Assembly (NCBI GenBank): GCA_902615625.1
Contig: CACMPM010000002.1
Location: 28,472-92,471 of the forward strand
From: an uncultured Alphaproteobacteria bacterium
Lineage (GTDB): Bacteria > Pseudomonadota > Alphaproteobacteria > HIMB59 > GCA-002718135
DNA length: 64,000 bases
Direction: 5' to 3'
Shown: positions 1,148 to 59,292 of the stretch, in pieces
How the letters are laid out: every line of letters begins with the position of its first letter
How positions within the stretch are numbered: the first letter of the stretch is position 1
Notes under the pieces: model-generated
Seen by the model: only the letters and a program-made list of their open reading frames with translations
The model's database searches: none
What the model was told of the DNA's origin: nothing
Translations under genes and position numbers: made by a program

Positions 1148-1930
1148 ATGAATACCATAATTGATATAGTTAATCAGTCAAAACATCCAATAGATAGTGA
1201 TGAATATATTCAATATTGCAATGATGAAATTAAAAAAAATTCTATACTAATATTAAATGATTTTTTAACAAATAGCTGCCTAAATGAATTAATTACTGAA
1301 GCACATGGATTACAAGATCAAGCTTTCTATTGTTCTCAAAATCATACTATCTTACTTAATAAACAAGATAAATTAAGTGCCTTGAATGATCCTTTAAATA
1401 GAGAGGTCGTAAGTGATAAAGGTTGTGTTCCTCATGATCTGTTAAATCAGCAATCAAAATTAAATATTTTATATCAATCAAATATTTTTAAAAATTTTTT
1501 AAAAGGTGTCTTAAATTTAAAAGATATTTATCCATACAGTGATACCTTATCTTCCATAAATTATAATTATTATCAAAAATCACAACAGCTAGGATGGCAT
1601 TTTGATAATGCATCATTTGCTATCACTTTAATGATACAATCATCAGATAATGGTGGTGAGTTTGAATATGTTAGTAAAGGTAGAAATTTTTCAGAAAACT
1701 ATATCGATAAATCATATATTAAAGATATTTTAGATAGAAAAATTTCAGCACAAAAAGCTAATGTTGATTCCGGTACTCTTATATTATTTTATGGTAGAAA
1801 TTATTTGCATCGTGTAACACCAGTAGAGTCAGAAAAACCAAGAATATTAGTAACACTAAATTATAATGAAGAGGAAGGTACAATGCTCTCAGAAAATGCA
1901 AGATTAACATTTTTTGGTAGAATTAACTAA
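1148..1930 (+). CDS. 2OG-Fe(II) oxygenase, BesD/HalD-like fold, HxD (hydroxylase-type) motif
   Basis: LGWHFD...GGEFEY...LHRVTPV...R facial triad and 2OG-binding Arg. Confidence 0.7.
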   Translation: MNTIIDIVNQSKHPIDSDEYIQYCNDEIKKNSILILNDFLTNSCLNELITEAHGLQDQAFYCSQNHTILLNKQDKLSALNDPLNREVVSDKGCVPHDLLNQQSKLNILYQSNIFKNFLKGVLNLKDIYPYSDTLSSINYNYYQKSQQLGWHFDNASFAITLMIQSSDNGGEFEYVSKGRNFSENYIDKSYIKDILDRKISAQKANVDSGTLILFYGRNYLHRVTPVESEKPRILVTLNYNEEEGTMLSENARLTFFGRIN

Positions 1931-22915: not shown

Positions 22916-23626
22916 ATGAAAGTTGATAAAGATCAAATATCTGCGTGGGGTGTTCATGCCTTTACTGGTTCTGGAGCTATACTTGGTTTTCTTGCCTTAA
23001 TATCAATATTAAATAATGATCAAACTGGAGCTTTCTTATGGTTAGGATTAGCATTACTTGTTGATGGAATAGACGGAACATTAGCAAGAAGAGTAGGTGT
23101 TGAAGAGAAAGCACCAAATTTAGATGGAATTATTTTAGACAGTATTGTTGATTATCTTAACTATGTAATAAATCCTGCTTTAATGATTTATTGGTTTCAA
23201 TTAGTTCCTGATGGTTTTGAAATTATCATGCCCGCTATAATATTTGGTGTTTCTTTGTACACTTTTATTAATGTTAATATGAAAACTGATGATTATTATT
23301 TCAGAGGCTTTCCTGCAATTTGGAATATTGTAGTTTTATATTTTTTCATATTAAATTCAAATACTTGGATAAACCTTATAGTCATAATTATTTTATCAGT
23401 ATTGACTTTTATCCCTTTTAAGTTTGTTCATCCATTACGAGTAAAATCTTATCGAAATCTAACTATTTTTTTTACAGTAATATGGTCTGCAACAACTTTA
23501 AGACTCGTCACTAAATCAGAAATAAATTTAATCATCAATGACACAATAGTATTAGTCATCTGGTTAATATGTACTGGTTATTTTTCATATATTTGTTTAA
23601 ATAAATCATTAAAAGATTTCACATAA
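22916..23626 (+). CDS. pcs: Phosphatidylcholine synthase
   Basis: VHAFTGSG, DGIDGTLAR...DG..LD..VDYLNY, KTDDYYFRGFPA.WN, FVHPLRV. Confidence 0.85.
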   Translation: MKVDKDQISAWGVHAFTGSGAILGFLALISILNNDQTGAFLWLGLALLVDGIDGTLARRVGVEEKAPNLDGIILDSIVDYLNYVINPALMIYWFQLVPDGFEIIMPAIIFGVSLYTFINVNMKTDDYYFRGFPAIWNIVVLYFFILNSNTWINLIVIIILSVLTFIPFKFVHPLRVKSYRNLTIFFTVIWSATTLRLVTKSEINLIINDTIVLVIWLICTGYFSYICLNKSLKDFT

Positions 23627-23684: not shown

Positions 23685-25664
23685 ATGATTAAAATCTTCA
23701 TTACAATTGTTTTATTAATTTTTACTCAAATTAATTTATCGTTTGCAAATTGTGTAAAGGGTGACTGTAATAATGGTTTTGGAACTTGGGAAGATACTGA
23801 TTTTAAATATATTGGGAAATTTGAAGATGGTTTATTTAATGGACAAGGTTCTGTAATATTTAATGATGGTGAAAGCTATACTGGTGAATTTAGTAATGAT
23901 GCTTTTAATGGTTATGGCACATATATTTTTTTAAATGGAGATACATATATAGGTGATTTTTTAGATGGAGAATTTAGTGGATACGGTTTCTATTCATATA
24001 GTAATGGAGATTCATATGAAGGAGGATACTTAAATAATCAACGAAATGGTTTTGGAAATTTTAAATTTAATGATGGTCAAGAATATATTGGTGAATTTAA
24101 AAATGATAATTATGATGGATTTGGCACATTGTTTCTTAAAGATAATGATTTTTATGAAGGTGAATTTAAAAATGGTCTATTTAGTGGAATTGGTAAATAT
24201 ACATATGGAAATGGACTTATAGAGGAAGGTTATTATGAAGATGGTATATTTTTATCATCAAATTCTAATTCAGATAATTTAAATTTAGTTGAAGAATTTT
24301 TTAATATAGAATTATCTCAATCTACAATAAGAAATTTCATTGAAAATTCTGGAATTCAATATGAAGTTTTTGAGTTTATAGATGATAGTAGTTTTAGTAT
24401 TAAAAATCTCTATTTTAATGACGGATTATCAGAATTTATAATAGGTGAAGTTACACTAATTGATTTAGATTATTATGCTATAAACAAAATAAAAATAAAT
24501 AGTGATATAAAAATAAACCTTTTTAAAAAGATTATAATAAAAGAATATTCATATAAAGAAGATAATATAGATCATTTTATAGATCATTTTGAAATTTCAA
24601 ATTTAAATATAAATAATGCAAGTTTAATTTATGATTTTTTAAATTCTTTAGACTTTTTTAATTTTGAAAATATTTATTTTATTCTTGATACTATTAGTTT
24701 TAATGAATTTAAAATTAATGGAGCTAAAATTGCTGAAATAGATTACTACGGTGAATGGGAAAAGTTCGAGTTTTCTAATTATAAAGATATGAATTTTGAT
24801 TCAATTCTATTAGAAAATTATTATTTTAATGAAGAAGAAGTTGAACAAGAAGGTGGACTAATTAAGATCAAAGATTTAACATTCAATAGACCTCAAAATA
24901 TTTTATATTTTGACATTAATAATCCTGATTTATTTTTTTCAATTTTTAAATCTTTAGATAATTTTGTTGCAAAAGATATCTGGTATAAAGACAAGTTTGA
25001 TAATGTTACATTTAATGCAGATCTATATGAAATATCAAATTTAAATACTATAGAAATAGATAATTTATTTTTACCAGTTACATTAGATTTTAATTTAAAG
25101 AATGTAATTTTTTCAGATTTAGATTCTGAGATAAAAATGTATTTAAATATGTTAGGTTATGATGATTTATCTTTTGATTTAAACTTTCAATCATCAATAG
25201 ATTATAAAAAAGAAGAATTTACTATTTCTCTTGATACCTCAGTTTATGATGCTTTTGGTTTAAAAACCAAATTAATATTTTCAAATTTAGATATAAATTC
25301 TATAAATTTTTCAAATGATATGGAATTAATGGAATATTTTTCTAACGAATTTAAATTTAATTTATTTGAGATTGAATTTATAGATGAAGGAATGACAGAC
25401 AAAATTTTCTTATTTGTAGATGAATTTTTTGGTTTCAAAAAAAATGATATAAAACAATTATTTTTACAAGAAATAAATAATGATGCAGATTTACAAAGTT
25501 CAATAGATATCAAATATCTTAAAAAAATGTTAAATTTTATTGATAATCCAGATAGTATTAAAATTACAATTCAGCCTCAAAACCCAATGTCTTTTAATGA
25601 TATTTTAATTTATTCTATGAGCCCAGCCTTACTTATTGAAGAGCTTAATGTTAGTATTGAATAG
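23685..25664 (+). CDS. Exported protein with N-terminal MORN repeats and a large acidic C-terminal domain
   Basis: Signal peptide, CVKGDCNNG, about 7 YxGeFxxxxxxGxG repeats. Confidence 0.8.
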   Translation: MIKIFITIVLLIFTQINLSFANCVKGDCNNGFGTWEDTDFKYIGKFEDGLFNGQGSVIFNDGESYTGEFSNDAFNGYGTYIFLNGDTYIGDFLDGEFSGYGFYSYSNGDSYEGGYLNNQRNGFGNFKFNDGQEYIGEFKNDNYDGFGTLFLKDNDFYEGEFKNGLFSGIGKYTYGNGLIEEGYYEDGIFLSSNSNSDNLNLVEEFFNIELSQSTIRNFIENSGIQYEVFEFIDDSSFSIKNLYFNDGLSEFIIGEVTLIDLDYYAINKIKINSDIKINLFKKIIIKEYSYKEDNIDHFIDHFEISNLNINNASLIYDFLNSLDFFNFENIYFILDTISFNEFKINGAKIAEIDYYGEWEKFEFSNYKDMNFDSILLENYYFNEEEVEQEGGLIKIKDLTFNRPQNILYFDINNPDLFFSIFKSLDNFVAKDIWYKDKFDNVTFNADLYEISNLNTIEIDNLFLPVTLDFNLKNVIFSDLDSEIKMYLNMLGYDDLSFDLNFQSSIDYKKEEFTISLDTSVYDAFGLKTKLIFSNLDINSINFSNDMELMEYFSNEFKFNLFEIEFIDEGMTDKIFLFVDEFFGFKKNDIKQLFLQEINNDADLQSSIDIKYLKKMLNFIDNPDSIKITIQPQNPMSFNDILIYSMSPALLIEELNVSIE

Positions 25665-25702
25665 TGTTATCTAAATTATTCCAATTATACCTTTATTTTT
25701 TT

Positions 25703-25725
25703 TAATATGCATAATTTGCATATTA
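25703..25725. promoter_or_regulatory. Perfect 9-bp inverted repeat, possible operator
   Basis: TAATATGCA-TAATT-TGCATATTA, about 55 nt upstream of the riboswitch aptamers. Confidence 0.3.
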
Positions 25726-25778
25726 GATAATGATCTTAATCATTTTATAATATCAATAAGTTTTATTATTAATTTTTC

Positions 25779-25832
25779 ATCGTTCATTTTGAATAATTCA
25801 AAACGGAAGTAAACGAAAGTTGAAGGAACGCA
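25779..25832 (+). promoter_or_regulatory. Glutamine riboswitch aptamer 1 (glnA RNA motif)
   Basis: P1 CGTTC/GAACG, P2 TTTTGAA/TTCAAAA, junction CGGAAGTA, P3 AAC-GAAA-GTT, E-loop GAAG, terminal C. Confidence 0.92.
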
Positions 25833-25845
25833 TGCAAGTTATTAA

Positions 25846-25898
25846 ATCGTTCAATCTGTATTTTACAGATCGGAAGTAAGCTAAAGCTGAAGGAACGC
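25846..25898 (+). promoter_or_regulatory. Glutamine riboswitch aptamer 2 (glnA RNA motif)
   Basis: P1 CGTTC/GAACG, P2 ATCTGTA/TACAGAT, CGGAAGTA, P3 AGC-TAAA-GCT, GAAG; stems covary with aptamer 1. Confidence 0.92.
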
Positions 25899-25964
25899 GG
25901 ATCTTATTATTAATTTCCATAGCTAGGCATGAATTATAACGGATAAGAAAGGTTTGTTATAACT

Positions 25965-26027
25965 ATGGTTAAAAAGTTAGATAATAAAAAATTAATCTAT
26001 TCTAATCTCAAGAGGTTTAATGATTGA
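25965..26027 (+). CDS. Putative 20-aa leader uORF (MVKKLDNKKLIYSNLKRFND)
   Basis: GAAAGG upstream; stop overlaps the next start as TGATG; the ATG lies in a predicted stem. Confidence 0.4.
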   Translation: MVKKLDNKKLIYSNLKRFND

Positions 26028-27433
26028 TGTTTAACGAAATGTATCAATCTGAGTCAGTTATAAGAAATCATTATAATAATATTAATGATTGGTTAGATCA
26101 AATGACTTCAAAAGTAATTCTTGAAAAGAATGCTGAAGCTGAAACTCATTTTAGAAATATTGGAATTACATTTTCTACAAATAATGAAACATCAAGAGAA
26201 AGAATTATTCCGTTTGATTTAATTCCAAGGATATTTACTTATACTGAATGGTTAAGGTTAGAAAGAGGGGTAATCCAAAGAGCTAAAGCACTAAATGCTT
26301 TTCTAGCTGATATTTATAATCAAGGTGAAATAATAAAAGCCAATATAATTCCTAAAGAAATTATTTACAAAAAAAAATCTTTTGAACCTTCTATGTTTGG
26401 TTTTTCTCCTCCTAGAGATATTTATAGCCCTATAATTGGTATTGATTTAGTTAGAACAGGTCCAAATGATTATTTTGTTTTAGAAGATAATTGTCGAACA
26501 CCAAGTGGTGTTTCCTACATGCTAGAAAATAGAGAAATAATGATGCGAATGTTTCCTGATTTATTTCATAACAATAGAGTAACACCTATAGATGACTACC
26601 CAACAAGACTTTTGCAAACATTGATGAGTTTAGCTCCTATTAAATGTGAAAATCCTGAACCAGTTTGCGTGTTACTTACACCTGGTCCTTTAAATAGCGC
26701 TTATTACGAACACAGTTTTTTATCAGATCAAATGGGTATTGAAATGGTTGAATCAACAGATTTATTTGTTGAAGGAAAATATCTTTATATGAAAACAGTT
26801 GATGGTCCAAAAAGAGTAGATGTTGTTTATAGAAGAATAGATGACGATTTTTTAGATCCTTTATGTTTTAATCCTCAGTCTGTAATTGGTATTCCAGGAA
26901 TTATGGATGTTTATAGAACAGGTGGCGTCAATATCTGTTCAGCACCTGGAGTAGGTATAGCTGATGACAAAGCAATTTATATTTATGTGCCTGAGATGAT
27001 CAAATTTTATTTAGGTGAACAACCAATCTTAGATAATGTTGAAACATGGAATTGTGAAAAGGAACAAGAATTAAAATATGTTTTAGATAATATAAATAAA
27101 CTTGTCGTAAAAGAAGTTGATGGATCTGGAGGTTATGGAATGTTAATAGGTCCAAAATCTTCTAAATCCACTATAGATGAATTTAAAACAAAACTCTCAA
27201 CAAATCCAAAAGGATATATAGCTCAACCTTTACTTGATCTTTCATTTTCACCAACACTCATCAAAAATCAAGTTGAGGGAAGAAGAGTAGATTTACGACC
27301 ATTTTGTTTAATTGGAGAGCAGGCTCAATTAAGTTCTGGCGGTTTAACTAGAGTTGCGATGAATGAAGGTTCTTTTGTTGTTAATTCTAGCCAAGGAGGC
27401 GGTGTGAAAGACACATGGGTATTAGCTGAATGA
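26027..27433 (+). CDS. Circularly permuted type 2 ATP-grasp protein
   Basis: IPFDLIPR, VLEDNCRTPSGVSYMLENR, LTPGPLNSAYYEH, YRRIDDDFLDP, GGLTRVA, VVNSSQGGGVKDTWVL. Confidence 0.95.
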   Translation: MFNEMYQSESVIRNHYNNINDWLDQMTSKVILEKNAEAETHFRNIGITFSTNNETSRERIIPFDLIPRIFTYTEWLRLERGVIQRAKALNAFLADIYNQGEIIKANIIPKEIIYKKKSFEPSMFGFSPPRDIYSPIIGIDLVRTGPNDYFVLEDNCRTPSGVSYMLENREIMMRMFPDLFHNNRVTPIDDYPTRLLQTLMSLAPIKCENPEPVCVLLTPGPLNSAYYEHSFLSDQMGIEMVESTDLFVEGKYLYMKTVDGPKRVDVVYRRIDDDFLDPLCFNPQSVIGIPGIMDVYRTGGVNICSAPGVGIADDKAIYIYVPEMIKFYLGEQPILDNVETWNCEKEQELKYVLDNINKLVVKEVDGSGGYGMLIGPKSSKSTIDEFKTKLSTNPKGYIAQPLLDLSFSPTLIKNQVEGRRVDLRPFCLIGEQAQLSSGGLTRVAMNEGSFVVNSSQGGGVKDTWVLAE

Positions 27434-27442
27434 GGAATAAAA

Positions 27443-28378
27443 ATGTTAAGTAGAACTGCTGAATATCTGTATTGGATCAGTCGTTATATGGAAAGAGCTG
27501 AAACAACAGCAAGGCTCTTAGATGTTGGTTATAGAATGTCTCTTTTTCCAAATCCAAGTGGTTATAATAATGAATGGGAATCAGTTTTATCTGCTGCTGG
27601 GGCAATTGAGGGGTATAAAAATAAATATGATACAATTGAACAGAAAAATGTGGAAGATTATTTATTTTTTGATGAAAGTAATCCTTCGTCTGTTTACAAT
27701 TGTATTCTTAATGCACGAAATAACGCATTAGTAGTTAGAACTTCCTTTACCCCTGAGTCTTGGTTAGCAATTAATAAAACTTATCAAGAGATACTAAACT
27801 TAAAAGAAAAAAAATTTATAAAATCTGATTTACCTGATCTTACAGAGTGGACAATAGAACAAGTAAATTTATTTAGGGGATCATTAAGTTCTTTACTTAG
27901 AAATGATGGTTATAATTTCCTTTTTCTTGGTTTATTTATTGAAAGAGCAGATAATTCTGCCAGATTATTAGATGTAAAGTATTTTGTTTTATTACCAAAA
28001 CCTCAATATGTAGGAGGCAATATCGATAATATGCAATGGAGTATATTGCTTCGTTCTTTATCATCTTTTAGAGCTTTTAGATGGGCATACGATGGGAATA
28101 TTACTGCAACTAAAATTGCTGATTTTTTAGTTTTAAATAATAATTGTCCTAGATCTTTAAGTTTTTGTATTCAAAATATTGTCAAACATTTAACTAACCT
28201 AACATGTAGTCCAGAAAAAGTTGGAAGAATTTATAATAATTTAAAAGATCTAAATACTAAAATTCAAGAAGAAAAAATAGAAACTATTGTTGAATATGGT
28301 CTTCATCAATTTGTAACACAATTTATTAGAAAAATATCTAGTGTTGATAACGAAATACATAAGGAGTTTTTTAATTAA
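27443..28378 (+). CDS. Alpha-E domain protein (DUF403)
   Basis: MLSRTAEYLYWISRYMERAE and IERAD..ARLLDVKY ER motifs; PRSL. Confidence 0.95.
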   Translation: MLSRTAEYLYWISRYMERAETTARLLDVGYRMSLFPNPSGYNNEWESVLSAAGAIEGYKNKYDTIEQKNVEDYLFFDESNPSSVYNCILNARNNALVVRTSFTPESWLAINKTYQEILNLKEKKFIKSDLPDLTEWTIEQVNLFRGSLSSLLRNDGYNFLFLGLFIERADNSARLLDVKYFVLLPKPQYVGGNIDNMQWSILLRSLSSFRAFRWAYDGNITATKIADFLVLNNNCPRSLSFCIQNIVKHLTNLTCSPEKVGRIYNNLKDLNTKIQEEKIETIVEYGLHQFVTQFIRKISSVDNEIHKEFFN

Positions 28379-28379
28379 T

Positions 28380-29219
28380 ATGGAACTAATAATTGAACAT
28401 ACAACTAAATATGAATATAAAAATCCAGTTGCGGGATTAATTCAAACCACTAAACTGCATCCTTCGGAATATAATGGTCTTAAAATTTTAGAGTGGAATG
28501 TCCATAATGATTCAGCTAAAAAATCAAAAATTTATCAGGATGGTGAAGCTAATAATATTCAAAGTTATACAAATACAAATAAGGTAAAAAAAATACAATT
28601 TACAGTTCTAGGAAAAGTCGAAACATTTGATACGAAAGGAATTTACCAAAGTGCTTCTGATAAAATAGATCCATTAGTTTACTTAAGAGAATCAAATTTA
28701 ACAAAAGCAAATGATAATATAAAAAATTTAGCTATTGAAGCTAAAAATGGTTTTAATGAAAATGAAAATTTGGAAACATCTCATAATTTGATGAATTTAG
28801 TAGCTGAAAAAATTGAATACAAGCCATTAACTACAAATAATCAAACAACTGCAATTGAAGCATTTAAACAGAAAAAAGGAGTATGCCAGGACCAAGCACA
28901 TATTATGATTGCAGCTGCAAAAACCCTTGGAATTCCTGCCAGATATGTAAATGGTTATATGCATAACAATTCTCATTCTTCAGAATTTCAATCTACACAT
29001 GCTTGGGCTGAATTTTATATTAATGATTTAGGGTGGGTAGGCTTTGATCCAACAAATAAATGCAGTCCTGATGAAAGATACGTACGTGTTTCATGTGGGC
29101 TTGATGCTAGTTACGCATCACCTATTAAAGGTGTTTTTTATGGAAATATCAATAATGATGATGTGATAGAAAACTTAGATATACATGTACAAACATTAGA
29201 AAATAACTCTCAACAATAA
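28380..29219 (+). CDS. Transglutaminase-like protein
   Basis: GVCQDQAH, IPARYVNGY, HAWAE, GFDPTN catalytic Cys-His-Asp; ATG at 28380. Confidence 0.93.
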   Translation: MELIIEHTTKYEYKNPVAGLIQTTKLHPSEYNGLKILEWNVHNDSAKKSKIYQDGEANNIQSYTNTNKVKKIQFTVLGKVETFDTKGIYQSASDKIDPLVYLRESNLTKANDNIKNLAIEAKNGFNENENLETSHNLMNLVAEKIEYKPLTTNNQTTAIEAFKQKKGVCQDQAHIMIAAAKTLGIPARYVNGYMHNNSHSSEFQSTHAWAEFYINDLGWVGFDPTNKCSPDERYVRVSCGLDASYASPIKGVFYGNINNDDVIENLDIHVQTLENNSQQ

Positions 29220-29274
29220 TTTGTTCGAAATATTTTCTTAACTTACTAGTATTATTTTAAAAAAAGGAGGAAAT

Positions 29275-29637
29275 ATGTTTCAAAATAAAAAACAACTTCA
29301 GTATTTATGGATTTATAAACCTGAACTTAATGATATTGCAAAAAGAATTGCAGAAGATCATACAAAATGGATGAAGGAAACACATACAAAGGAAGGTGAT
29401 AAAGCACTTCTAATGTTAAATTGGTCTATAGGTCCTGAATTTAAAGATGGAAATAAAACAGGCAATATGTCTTTGATCCTAACAGAGGTTTATGCAAATC
29501 AAGCAGGAATAGATAATCATTTTGAGCAAGCACAAAATAATGGAGCAATTTTTAGAGATGATTTTAGTGATTTTGAAAGTAAATGTGAGAATTTAGTAAA
29601 AATTAATAGTTCAGATATTATCCATTCAATGTGGTAA
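29275..29637 (+). CDS. Hypothetical protein, possibly dimeric alpha/beta-barrel
   Basis: Strong AAGGAGG RBS; LTEVY....GIDNHF resembles ABM-like folds. Confidence 0.7.
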   Translation: MFQNKKQLQYLWIYKPELNDIAKRIAEDHTKWMKETHTKEGDKALLMLNWSIGPEFKDGNKTGNMSLILTEVYANQAGIDNHFEQAQNNGAIFRDDFSDFESKCENLVKINSSDIIHSMW

Positions 29638-29748
29638 ATATAATTTTTAATATCTAATTTATTTTTAAATAGATTTTAATAATCTTATTGTATTATTCAA
29701 ACTACATATCTAAGTTAAATACTATATTTATTTGAATTTATACATATT

Positions 29749-30144
29749 ATGGAAATTGAAAAAATTTTTAAAAATTTAATTTTAGCAGATTTTATTGTTA
29801 TAATTTTAATGGTTATATCAGCCATGTATCAACCATCAGAAATATCCAATCTTTATGAAAATTTAAATGACGGTTTACTATCCAATTATGAAAATTTTTC
29901 TCGAATTGTATCAATTAGTTTATTCTTTTTATATCTATTTACTTTAAATCTACTTTATCGATTTATTTCTTATGGTAAACCGATGTATTTATTTTTAGTA
30001 GTAGCTGGTATAGTTCTAAATTATTTTAGTGGTTCTGTCATCTATACTGCTTTTAGTGGAATGCTTGATCAAATAGGTGGTCTGATTAGTGGTGCAATTT
30101 TAATTCTTTTGTATTTTTCACCAGTTAAAGATAACTTTAGATAA
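29749..30144 (+). CDS. Hypothetical membrane protein
   Basis: 4 hydrophobic segments; LYFSPVKDNF end. Confidence 0.7.
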   Translation: MEIEKIFKNLILADFIVIILMVISAMYQPSEISNLYENLNDGLLSNYENFSRIVSISLFFLYLFTLNLLYRFISYGKPMYLFLVVAGIVLNYFSGSVIYTAFSGMLDQIGGLISGAILILLYFSPVKDNFR

Positions 30145-30262
30145 GAAATAACTAAGTTTTCTGCAATCAAATCAATATTTATGTATTTTTTTTTAAAAAA
30201 TAGTTAAGATATATAAATAGGTCGGTCTAAACCCTTGTAAAAAAAAGACCATAAATTTGATT

Positions 30263-30655
30263 ATGGTAAAAACTTTAGCTAAAATTATTATTGGTTTGTT
30301 AAGTTTGTGGGCAATAGTATTTATAATTGCAGAGATTGCTGGTGTAACTATCTATTTTCCATTCACTATAGTTGAAAGACAAGAAATACCATATCATAGA
30401 ATTGCTGCGGTCAGATTAGCTGTTTTTCTAACTTTTGCTTACTTTGGTTTTAGATATATTTTTTTTCAATCAGAAAAGCTTTATCCTATTCAGTTTTTAG
30501 AAATTTATATTAAATCATTTACAGTTTGTTGTTTATTTGTTTTTTACACTAGTCAAGTTGAATATAGAGAATACTATTTTGTTCTATTTTTATTTATTGT
30601 TTCATTGATATTGCATTACGCATCAAGAAATAAAATAAGAAGTTATTTTAATTAA
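30263..30655 (+). CDS. Hypothetical membrane protein
   Basis: 4 hydrophobic segments; ATG at 30263. Confidence 0.7.
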   Translation: MVKTLAKIIIGLLSLWAIVFIIAEIAGVTIYFPFTIVERQEIPYHRIAAVRLAVFLTFAYFGFRYIFFQSEKLYPIQFLEIYIKSFTVCCLFVFYTSQVEYREYYFVLFLFIVSLILHYASRNKIRSYFN

Positions 30656-57586: not shown

Positions 57587-59292
57587 TGAAAAAAATAAAA
57601 AGAGAAGCTTATGCCGATATGTATGGGCCAACAACTGGTGATAAAGTTAGACTTGCTGATACTGAATTATTTATTGAAGTGGAAAAAGATTTAACAACTT
57701 ATGGAGAAGAGGTAAAATTTGGTGGAGGAAAAGTTATTAGAGATGGAATGGGACAATCTCAAGTATCTCGCAAATACGGTGCTGTTGATACAGTTATAAC
57801 AAATGCCTTAATAGTAGATGTAAATGGAATTTATAAAGCTGATATTGGTCTTAAGGATGGCTTAATTAATGAAATTGGTAAGGCTGGTAATCCAGATACA
57901 CAACCTAATGTAAATATTATTATTGGACCTGGAACAGAAATAATTGCTGGTGAAGGCAAAATTATAACAGCTGGTGGTTTTGATAGTCATATTCATTTTA
58001 TTTGTCCTCAACAAATAGATGATGCACTTCATTCTGGTATTACAACTATGTTGGGAGGAGGAACTGGTCCTGCACATGGTACTTTAGCTACTACAGTTAC
58101 ACCTGGACCATGGCATATAGAGAAAATGATACAATCAGCAGATGCTTTTTCCATGAACTTAGCTTTTGCAGGAAAAGGAAATAGTTCTTTACCTAAAGCT
58201 CTTGAAGAACAAGTAATTGCCGGTGCATCTTCATTAAAACTACATGAAGATTGGGGTACAACTCCCGCAGCAATAGATAATTGTTTAAATGTAGCTGATG
58301 ACCATGATATCCAAGTTATGATTCACACAGATACATTAAATGAAAGTGGTTTTGTGGAAAGCACAATTAAAGCAATTAATGGAAGAACAATTCATGCTTT
58401 TCATACTGAAGGAGCTGGTGGTGGTCATGCACCTGATATTATAAAAGTTTGTGGTGAACAATATGTTATTCCTTCTTCTACTAACCCAACAAGACCTTAC
58501 ACGGTAAATACAGTTGAAGAACATTTAGATATGTTAATGGTTTGTCATCACTTGGATAAATCAATACCTGAAGATGTTGCTTTTGCTGAAAGTCGTATTC
58601 GAAAAGAAACAATTGCAGCAGAAGATATACTGCATGACATGGGTGCTTTTTCAATTATTGCTTCTGATAGTCAAGCTATGGGTCGTGTTGGTGAGGTTAT
58701 TATTAGAACATGGCAAACAGCACATAAAATGAAAGTTCAACGTGGACAATTAAAAGAAGAGCAGGGTGATAACGACAATGTAAGAGTTAAAAGATACATT
58801 GCTAAATATACAATTAATCCTGCAATTGCCCATGGTATTTCCGAACATATTGGAAGTGTTGAAAAAAATAAACGTGCTGATATTGTTATTTGGGATACTG
58901 CCTTTTTTGGCGTTAAACCTGAAATGGTTTTACAAGGTGGAAGTATTGCTTGCGCACAAATGGGTGATCCTAATGCATCTATACCAACACCACAACCAGT
59001 GTACTCAAGACCAATGTTTTCTTCCTTTGGAAAATCATTAGAAAAATCTACTGTCACTTTTGTAAGTAAAGTTTGTTTAGATAAATCTTCATTTAAAAAC
59101 TCTGGTGTAAGTAAATCTTTGTTACCCGTTAAAAATATTAGAAAAATTTCTAAAAAAGACATGATATTAAATGATTATTGTCCAAAAATAGAAGTTAATC
59201 CAGAAACCTATGAAGTTTTAGCAGATGGTGAGTTAATTACTTGCGAGCCAGCCAAAACATTACCGTTGGCTCAACGTTATTTCATGTATTAA
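57586..59292 (+). CDS. ureC: Urease alpha subunit
   Basis: [44 protein letters not shown]. Confidence 0.99.

Follow-up and report, generated by a model that had tools for sequence, protein, structure and literature searches.

The closest described relative of the element analysed here is the glutamine-I riboswitch of gifB in the cyanobacterium Synechocystis. For this RNA, the C after stem P1 and its neighbours were proposed to pair with the ribosome-binding site (RBS), and glutamine was proposed to melt that helix (Klahn 2018). A 2024 review describes how, once glutamine is bound, a G of the junction moves into the base of P1 and joins the C following P1 in a 'linchpin' pair. The targets of glnA RNAs given in the accessible text of Weinberg 2010 are genes for P-II, glutamine synthetase (GS), glutamate synthase and ammonium transporters as well as PMT1479, and tandem copies were noted there; marine metagenomic copies located 5′ of glnA are mentioned in Klahn 2018, where the host and the sign of the regulation were left open. 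The present study deals with a stretch of 64,000 nucleotides (nt), hereafter the window, from an uncultured alphaproteobacterium (GTDB lineage HIMB59; GCA-002718135; assembly GCA_902615625.1, contig CACMPM010000002.1, positions 28,472 to 92,471). It carries a tandem pair of glutamine aptamers in the predicted leader of an operon encoding a circularly permuted (CP) ATP-grasp protein, an Alpha-E protein and a transglutaminase-like protein, and this link between riboswitch and operon is conserved across the genus.

Operons of this type have been described as the 'Anbu operon' (COG2308 ATP-grasp, COG2307 Alpha-E, COG1305 transglutaminase, and Anbu) and were predicted to form a peptide-ligation or tagging system. 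The trio of ATP-grasp, Alpha-E and transglutaminase is widespread and also present in genomes without Anbu; in the accessible literature its physiological role is given as not confirmed, and the ATP-grasp protein is reported to release phosphate from ATP. The genes were among the most up-regulated ones in nitrogen-limited Pseudomonas putida (Hervas 2008), they are sigma54/NtrC-dependent in Burkholderia cenocepacia (−6.0 to −9.4 tabulated for the ntrC mutant), and in marine metagenomes their domains vary together with those of urea metabolism. A coupling of a glutamine riboswitch with a transglutaminase or ATP-grasp gene was not found in open full text, and the supplements of Weinberg 2010 and Klahn 2018 could contain such an association. 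The assumption of the initial annotation, which had been made from the sequence alone, that this gene association was undescribed can thus be kept for the riboswitch within the open full text, whereas the nitrogen link of the operon type was already in print.

Whole-window cmscan against Rfam release 15 at the gathering threshold returned four matches, two of which were the Glutamine riboswitch (RF01739) on the plus strand. Aptamer 1 (25779–25834; 66.0 bits, E 2.1e-12) and aptamer 2 (25846–25901; 65.7 bits, E 2.6e-12) both cover the complete model (1–53 of 53) and score above the gathering score of 35 bits, so that the two complete glnA-motif aptamers seen in the initial annotation were recovered by the covariance model. 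P1 is formed by 25781–25785 with 25826–25830 in aptamer 1 and by 25848–25852 with 25893–25897 in aptamer 2; the C at the P1 base is 25831 and 25898, respectively. The consensus alignment places in both aptamers a P1/P2/P3 junction with CGGAAGUA in J2/3 and GAAG 5′ of the 3′ strand of P1. The two are separated by 11 nt between the Rfam matches or by about 14–17 nt between the conserved cores or P1 helices, close to the 13 nt given before. The cmscan alignments also bore out that the cores are identical and that the P2 and P3 stems differ in sequence and stay paired. This had been called compensatory change within one locus. The stems do differ and pair, but the observation is better put as covariation across homologues: in 31 distinct homologous modules, both-sided changes occurred in 15 of 41 pairs, all of them in P2 and P3 of both aptamers, and 95.9% of the cells were paired compared with 27–44% when the partners were slid. 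P1 was invariant across the 31 modules. Judged from sequence and covariation, both aptamers are genuine, ordinary members of a known riboswitch class, and L-glutamine would be the ligand of both, as deduced from the class match. In its covariance match, three-stem junction, conserved junction sequences and the presence of amt (ammonium transporter) and glnA genes among the known targets, the element equals the gifB riboswitch; it differs in its host, a SAR11-like alphaproteobacterium instead of a cyanobacterium, and in its target.

The aptamers lie on the strand of the operon, 122 nt 5′ of its start and with no intervening gene. The first gene encodes a CP_ATPgrasp_2 protein (26024/26027–27433, plus strand; PF14403, E 1e-152). 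Its start is the ATG at 26027, as in the initial annotation; a TTG at 26024, taken by the ORF (open reading frame) caller, is an alternative. It is followed by the Alpha-E gene (27443–28378, plus strand; PF04168, E 2e-86) and the transglutaminase-like gene (28341–29219, plus strand; Transglut_core PF01841, E 1.3e-24; Bact_transglu_N PF08379, E 2.2e-11). The Pfam matches thus corroborate the three adjacent genes and their order. None of the three proteins is named by NCBIfam. The ATP-grasp protein matches PDB 3n6x (E 2.7e-174), a structural-genomics entry termed 'putative glutathionylspermidine synthase', and a solved structure related to Alpha-E was not found by sequence search. Alignment of the transglutaminase-like protein to PDB 3isr showed conserved columns for Cys, His and Asp, which we take to be the catalytic residues of the transglutaminase core. 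The operon has the three families in the same order as the 'Anbu operon', whose homologues respond to nitrogen limitation. In contrast to the latter, no Anbu (proteasome beta-like) gene was found in the operon, the ORFs 3′ of 29219 being without Pfam or NCBIfam match, and control is attributed to a glutamine-sensing RNA instead of NtrC/sigma54. The sole Proteasome-family match (PF00227) in the own genome is a 182-amino-acid frame on contig C17.

The conservation of the arrangement was surveyed in the genus. The window belongs to contig C2 of its own assembly (1.31 Mb, 88% complete, G+C content (GC) about 0.29). An ATP-grasp homologue was present in 54 of 100 genus genomes, which together with the own genome gives 55 matches; since the genus assemblies are incomplete, a missing match does not show absence of the gene. 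Two of the 55 genes are cut at a contig start and have no upstream DNA. Among the 53 readable loci, 50 carry both aptamers 110–140 nt 5′ of the ATP-grasp start, and the other three are truncated by contig ends, leaving no aptamer (L044) or one each (L049 and L024). In the Rfam search, RF01739 matched in 59 of 60 other genus genomes, and the aptamer coordinates adjoin those of the ATP-grasp gene wherever both are listed (e.g., in G054, G059, G023 and G039). The aptamers and a conserved block 3′ of them (see below) are retained across ATP-grasp identities from 86% to 100%, with covarying stems. The ATP-grasp link is thus a conserved one within the genus. That the aptamers control the ATP-grasp operon at all is in our view very probable.

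Exactly four tandem pairs were detected in each of five genus genomes examined (eight RF01739 matches each; 79–96% complete), namely in front of the ATP-grasp operon, glnA and two amt genes (amtA-like and amtB-like). The own genome contains six aptamers arranged as three tandem pairs, and the two pairs outside the window precede two ammonium-transporter genes. It has two GS genes without a riboswitch; the riboswitch-led glnA of the relatives was not found, possibly owing to the 88% completeness. A P-II match was not found in this 88% complete genome either, in agreement with the nitrogen response of Pelagibacter, which has been reported to be independent of P-II, and one Sigma54_activat protein (448 amino acids) was present. 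The distribution is best explained by a tandem riboswitch that defines a four-unit glutamine regulon in the genus, comprising two amt units, one glnA unit and the ATP-grasp operon. Apart from these units, a single aptamer (L008, G035:C3, about 1503–1554, minus strand) was observed 5′ of an amt gene whose product shares only 30% identity with those of the two tandem-led amt genes. On contigs of the RNA-library runs X1 and X9, a 3′ part resembling aptamer 2 (25867–25900) is joined to sequence unlike all four genus contexts, which suggests a further riboswitch target in some relative.

Outside the genus, RF01739 matched none of 40 genomes of another family of the same order. At the next-closest loci ('Pelagibacteraceae/Pelagibacterales', ATP-grasp 73–77% identical, GC 0.32–0.35), the aptamer was absent by regular expression in 18 of 18 cases, and RF01739 at E values up to 0.1 gave no match in 15 of them, where just two weak DUF805b matches below the cut-off appeared. 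It was also absent by regular expression at 36 loci with an ATP-grasp protein 61–63% identical, mostly Rhodobacterales. A scan of metagenomes for the tandem core kept at least 80 loci, from which records very near the window's genome were possibly left out. Among the matches listed, at least 41 were true tandems, at least 35 were chance matches without an aptamer and at least four were single aptamers. The at least 41 tandems are followed by amt (about 13), glnA (2), ORFs of 51–67 amino acids (about 10), or by genes that are unknown or cut off; none of those among the matches listed is followed by an ATP-grasp gene. The association is therefore narrow and confined to one genus among the genomes and metagenomes searched. 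A second class of tandem was noticed on ten of the metagenome contigs (L165, L170, L202, L206, L212, L219, L220, L221, L233 and L237; GC 0.31–0.39). It has a short linker of other sequence and an ORF of 51–67 amino acids about 20–26 nt downstream. The tail after its aptamer 2 pairs with the Shine–Dalgarno sequence (SD) and covaries with it (CAUCU/AGAUG, CACCU/AGGUG), so that this class looks, by its sequence, like the classical ON design.

All genus contexts share one module, in which an invariant linker joins aptamer 1 to aptamer 2, and these are followed by a spacer, rich in A/U and variable in sequence and length, and by an invariant 3′ block. The layout of two complete aptamers followed by one 3′ block, a hairpin and the RBS is likewise found in the amt and glnA contexts. 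This block, the hairpin and a leader ORF, all situated between the aptamers and the gene, had been overlooked in the initial annotation. In the window, the linker covers 25831–25842 (plus strand) and the block 25914–25932 (plus strand), the latter including the pyrimidine-rich candidate anti-RBS UUUCCAUAG. The block columns are invariant in the 31 modules from ATP-grasp, amt and glnA contexts, and the block also occurs in metagenomic relatives with the CATGC linker. The linker provides the 5′ strands of a predicted clamp: CAUGC (25831–25835) would pair with GCAUG (25927–25931) as helix 1, and GUUAU (25838–25842) with AUAGC (25919–25923) as helix 2. CAUGC begins at the C directly 3′ of P1 of aptamer 1, which is the C recruited upon glutamine binding. 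Helix 1 was predicted by RNAalifold in all 31 modules and is paired in 31 of 31 rows, with an A-to-G change giving a G-U pair in four of them. For helix 2, the MAFFT register gives pairing in 27 of 31 rows; the remaining four are glnA rows, in which the linker is one base longer and, by eye, GUUAU pairs with AUAAC. The minimum free energy (MFE) fold of the window shows both helices and thereby encloses aptamer 2, and the clamp appeared in nine of 11 representative folds with the aptamer helices enforced. Two further pairings were considered and dropped. A spacer hairpin based on GGA:UCC is broken in some rows and was not retained as a defining element, and pairing of the block with P3 of aptamer 2 was discarded because P3 varies while the block does not. 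Tandem-aptamer riboswitches such as those for glycine likewise combine two like aptamers with one expression platform and a conserved joining sequence. Unlike in the glycine riboswitches, the linker here is predicted to pair 3′ of aptamer 2 and to enclose it. The helix attached to P1 also distinguishes the module from gifB, since it is a predicted long-range clamp onto the 3′ block and not a helix with the SD.

The block is followed by a hairpin (25934–25962, plus strand; part of the MFE fold) with a purine-rich, SD-like loop (GAAAGG, 25947–25952). It is kept across all sequence groups via one-sided or wobble changes. No U run follows it in the window leader, for which reason it was dropped as an intrinsic terminator at this locus. 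The loop was also not accepted as a proven SD, given its distance of 12 nt to the AUG and the presence of comparable loops in amt leaders with a separate SD. Next comes a leader ORF of 20 codons (25965–26027, plus strand), whose TGA stop (26025–26027) overlaps the ATG at 26027. In all 52 distinct ATP-grasp leaders, a leader ORF begins at the corresponding ATG, and in 49 of the 52 it ends at most 12 nt before the main ATG or overlaps it. The exceptions (L030, L067 and L094) have a one-base length change and the leader ORF runs a few codons into the gene. The predicted peptides of 16–25 residues fall into about five unlike groups, with position and end point conserved. In group 1, to which the window belongs, the main start is preceded by AAGAGG. 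In groups 2–5, the 16 nt directly 5′ of the main ATG contain no purine-rich stretch, and this points to an ATP-grasp translation that is coupled to the leader ORF. As in known cases of translational coupling by leader ORFs, the end of a short ORF coincides with or overlaps the main start codon, and most groups have no purine-rich stretch before it; different from these, the peptide of the putative leader ORF varies between groups. A leader ORF between switch and gene also separates the locus from gifB.

The candidate anti-RBS was examined by two predictions. The bound state was crudely imitated in 11 representatives by blocking the five bases 3′ of each P1 before folding. This lowered the mean unpaired probability of the main RBS in the amt contexts (0.61 to 0.35, 0.52 to 0.45, 0.40 to 0.20 and 0.53 to 0.25); the same was seen for the glnA context L017 (0.65 to 0.47) and the window leader (0.28 to 0.17). 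In the predicted folds, the block freed in this way pairs downstream. Second, a 16-nt segment of the block was matched to the 150 nt downstream by RNAduplex, with z-scores against shuffles. Its best duplex covered the SD in most amt contexts (13 of 15), the start region in most glnA contexts (six of nine) and the leader-ORF AUG in most ATP-grasp leaders of group 1. The variant of the block tracks its target: AUUUCAU occurs with an AUGAAAU start region (glnA) and UUUCCAU with an AUGGAGG SD region (amt).

A promoter-like site was found at 25724–25751 (plus strand; −35-like box 25724–25729, −10 box TATAAT 25746–25751; 10 of 12 consensus matches). The promoter scan was no richer than shuffled sequence (25 compared with 29.2 sites), and the site is regarded as a candidate only. 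Marine metatranscriptome runs cover, as contigs, small shares of the stretch (0.11–0.30). Record 1 of run X1 (610 nt) spans 25740–26211 with 25 differences and thus places the aptamers, the leader and the gene start on one RNA-library contig of a relative. Record 6 of X2 and record 8 of X3 begin at about 25769 and 25776, just 5′ of aptamer 1. No indication of a transcription start between the aptamers and the ATP-grasp gene was seen in these contigs, whose ends need not be those of RNAs.

Taken together, these features can be accommodated in a translational switch that responds to glutamine and represses when glutamine is high, for which we consider the chances to be about even. At low glutamine, C25831 and the linker would pair with the 3′ block (CAUGC:GCAUG and GUUAU:AUAGC). 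This clamp would enclose aptamer 2 and hide the anti-RBS UUUCCAUAG, so that the leader ORF could be translated, and the ATP-grasp gene would be translated via termination-reinitiation after it. With glutamine bound, C25831 would be drawn into the 'linchpin' pair of the aptamer and the clamp would open. The freed block might then pair with the ribosome-binding region, i.e., with the SD of amt, the start codon of glnA or the leader-ORF start at the present locus, and translation would fall. The operon would accordingly be made when glutamine is scarce, which matches the induction of homologous operons by nitrogen limitation. The predicted sign would then be OFF, in contrast to gifB. The enzymes might then act on peptides or proteins in nitrogen salvage, through ATP-dependent amide ligation and amide chemistry of the transglutaminase type; the proposed chemistry, including the Glu/Gln-linked peptides or tags considered in the initial annotation, is speculative.

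Several observations weigh against this model. The clamp pairs never change on both sides, so that covariation is neutral and neither supports nor refutes the clamp; helix 2 is unpaired in the four glnA rows in the MAFFT register, the GGA:UCC base of the spacer hairpin is broken in 3–4 of 31 rows, and the window leader folds no better than shuffled sequence (z −0.6). Blocking the bases after P1 changed the RBS access little in ATP-grasp groups 2, 3 and 5 (0.50 to 0.52, 0.43 to 0.38 and 0.44 to 0.43) and hardly altered it in L184 and L203. In the same three groups, the best duplex of the block lies inside the leader ORF, off its start. The duplexes of L203 and L223 fall away from the RBS, and that of L231 is on its SD, weakly (E −4.9, z +0.67). 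The z-scores are modest throughout (+1.06 to −3.3), and an oligonucleotide containing CC tends toward the only G-rich spot. The X1 contig extends a further 139 nt upstream of 25740; neither the ends nor the strand of an RNA can be read from contigs, and carry-over of DNA into RNA libraries is possible. Finally, the accessible text of Weinberg 2010 reads the glnA motif as lowering expression upon nitrogen depletion.

A rival reading is the same riboswitch with the opposite sign, in which glutamine would turn translation ON as in gifB and the operon would be expressed at plentiful nitrogen, for instance to store surplus amide nitrogen or to tag with it. All experimentally tested glutamine riboswitches in the accessible literature, the glutamine-I and glutamine-II types being the only ones, are ON switches, and the metagenomic tandems with the other linker, in which covarying pairs link the SD to the sequence 3′ of aptamer 2, fit an ON design. 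However, the module also stands in front of glnA and two amt genes, whose products are normally required when glutamine is low; in the published work, nitrogen limitation induces homologous operons; and the nucleotides after P1 are here predicted to pair with the conserved block and not with the SD. An ON switch at this locus is rather unlikely in our estimation.

A control of transcription or RNA stability appears improbable. In this case, the hairpin after the block would act as an aptamer-dependent terminator or processing site. A U-rich tract 3′ of the hairpin in several amt and glnA contexts would fit, as would two RNA contigs (X2 record 6 and X9 record 10) that end near 25939–25944, and a nearly invariant UAAC motif just 3′ of the block could compete for the linker. 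The ATP-grasp leader, however, lacks the U run after the hairpin, and the sole terminator-like site within 25400–29800 (29119–29143, plus strand) lies within the 3′-terminal part of the transglutaminase ORF and not after it. Moreover, the X1 and X3 contigs continue through the hairpin, and contig ends are not RNA ends. It is highly improbable that the aptamers are a duplicated cassette without present control or govern only a leader ORF whose peptide is itself the product (e.g., a ligase substrate), as might be suggested by the near-identity of the module at three loci of one genome, indicative of spread by duplication, and by the conserved N-terminal half of the leader peptide within groups 2 and 3, because the aptamers and the block are retained with covarying stems over the whole range of ATP-grasp identities, the leader ORF keeps its position and end point whereas its peptide varies strongly from group to group, and the missing purine-rich stretch before the main ATG in groups 2–5 argues for coupling.

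The translational OFF switch, extended to its full form, would represent a new platform design. Helices melted by glutamine would hide an anti-RBS and turn an ON aptamer into a two-input OFF switch that is read via a coupled leader ORF; glutamine would thereby shut off an operon needed only when glutamine is scarce, in bacteria in which P-II was not found, and the role of the operon would be nitrogen salvage from the amides of peptides or proteins. We put this complete proposal forward tentatively and regard it as less likely than not.

Further features of the window were recorded around the operon. Upstream of the riboswitch leader lies a gene for a MORN-repeat protein of 659 amino acids (23685–25664, plus strand), preceded by a phosphatidylcholine-synthase-like gene (22916–23626) that scores below the NCBIfam cut-offs. 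Three consecutive ORFs of 120–132 amino acids follow directly 3′ of the operon (29275–29637, 29749–30144 and 30257–30655, plus strand) and have no Pfam or NCBIfam match. Elsewhere in the window, Rfam reports a 5_ureB_sRNA (57735–58024, minus strand; 110.7 bits, cut-off 40). This family is antisense to a urease gene, and the match may merely mirror conserved urease coding sequence.

The aptamer class and the nitrogen link of the operon type are already known. New are the direct wiring of an enigmatic operon to a glutamine sensor, conserved in one abundant marine genus, the predicted clamp-plus-block architecture and the leader ORF with its predicted coupling. The initial annotation had regarded the system as wired directly to the glutamine pool; this is borne out insofar as the leader aptamers are conserved and the operon is one of four riboswitch-led units in five of five genomes, but the wiring is narrow and limited to one genus. 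As one of four units under a glutamine sensor, the operon gains independent evidence, from an RNA and not from NtrC, that it concerns the glutamine and ammonium economy of the cell. The host lineage is streamlined, with no P-II gene found in the own genome at 88% completeness. For the tandem glnA RNAs of marine metagenomes, the genus provides a taxonomic home, and the module offers a compact, testable model for a tandem riboswitch that would invert its logic.

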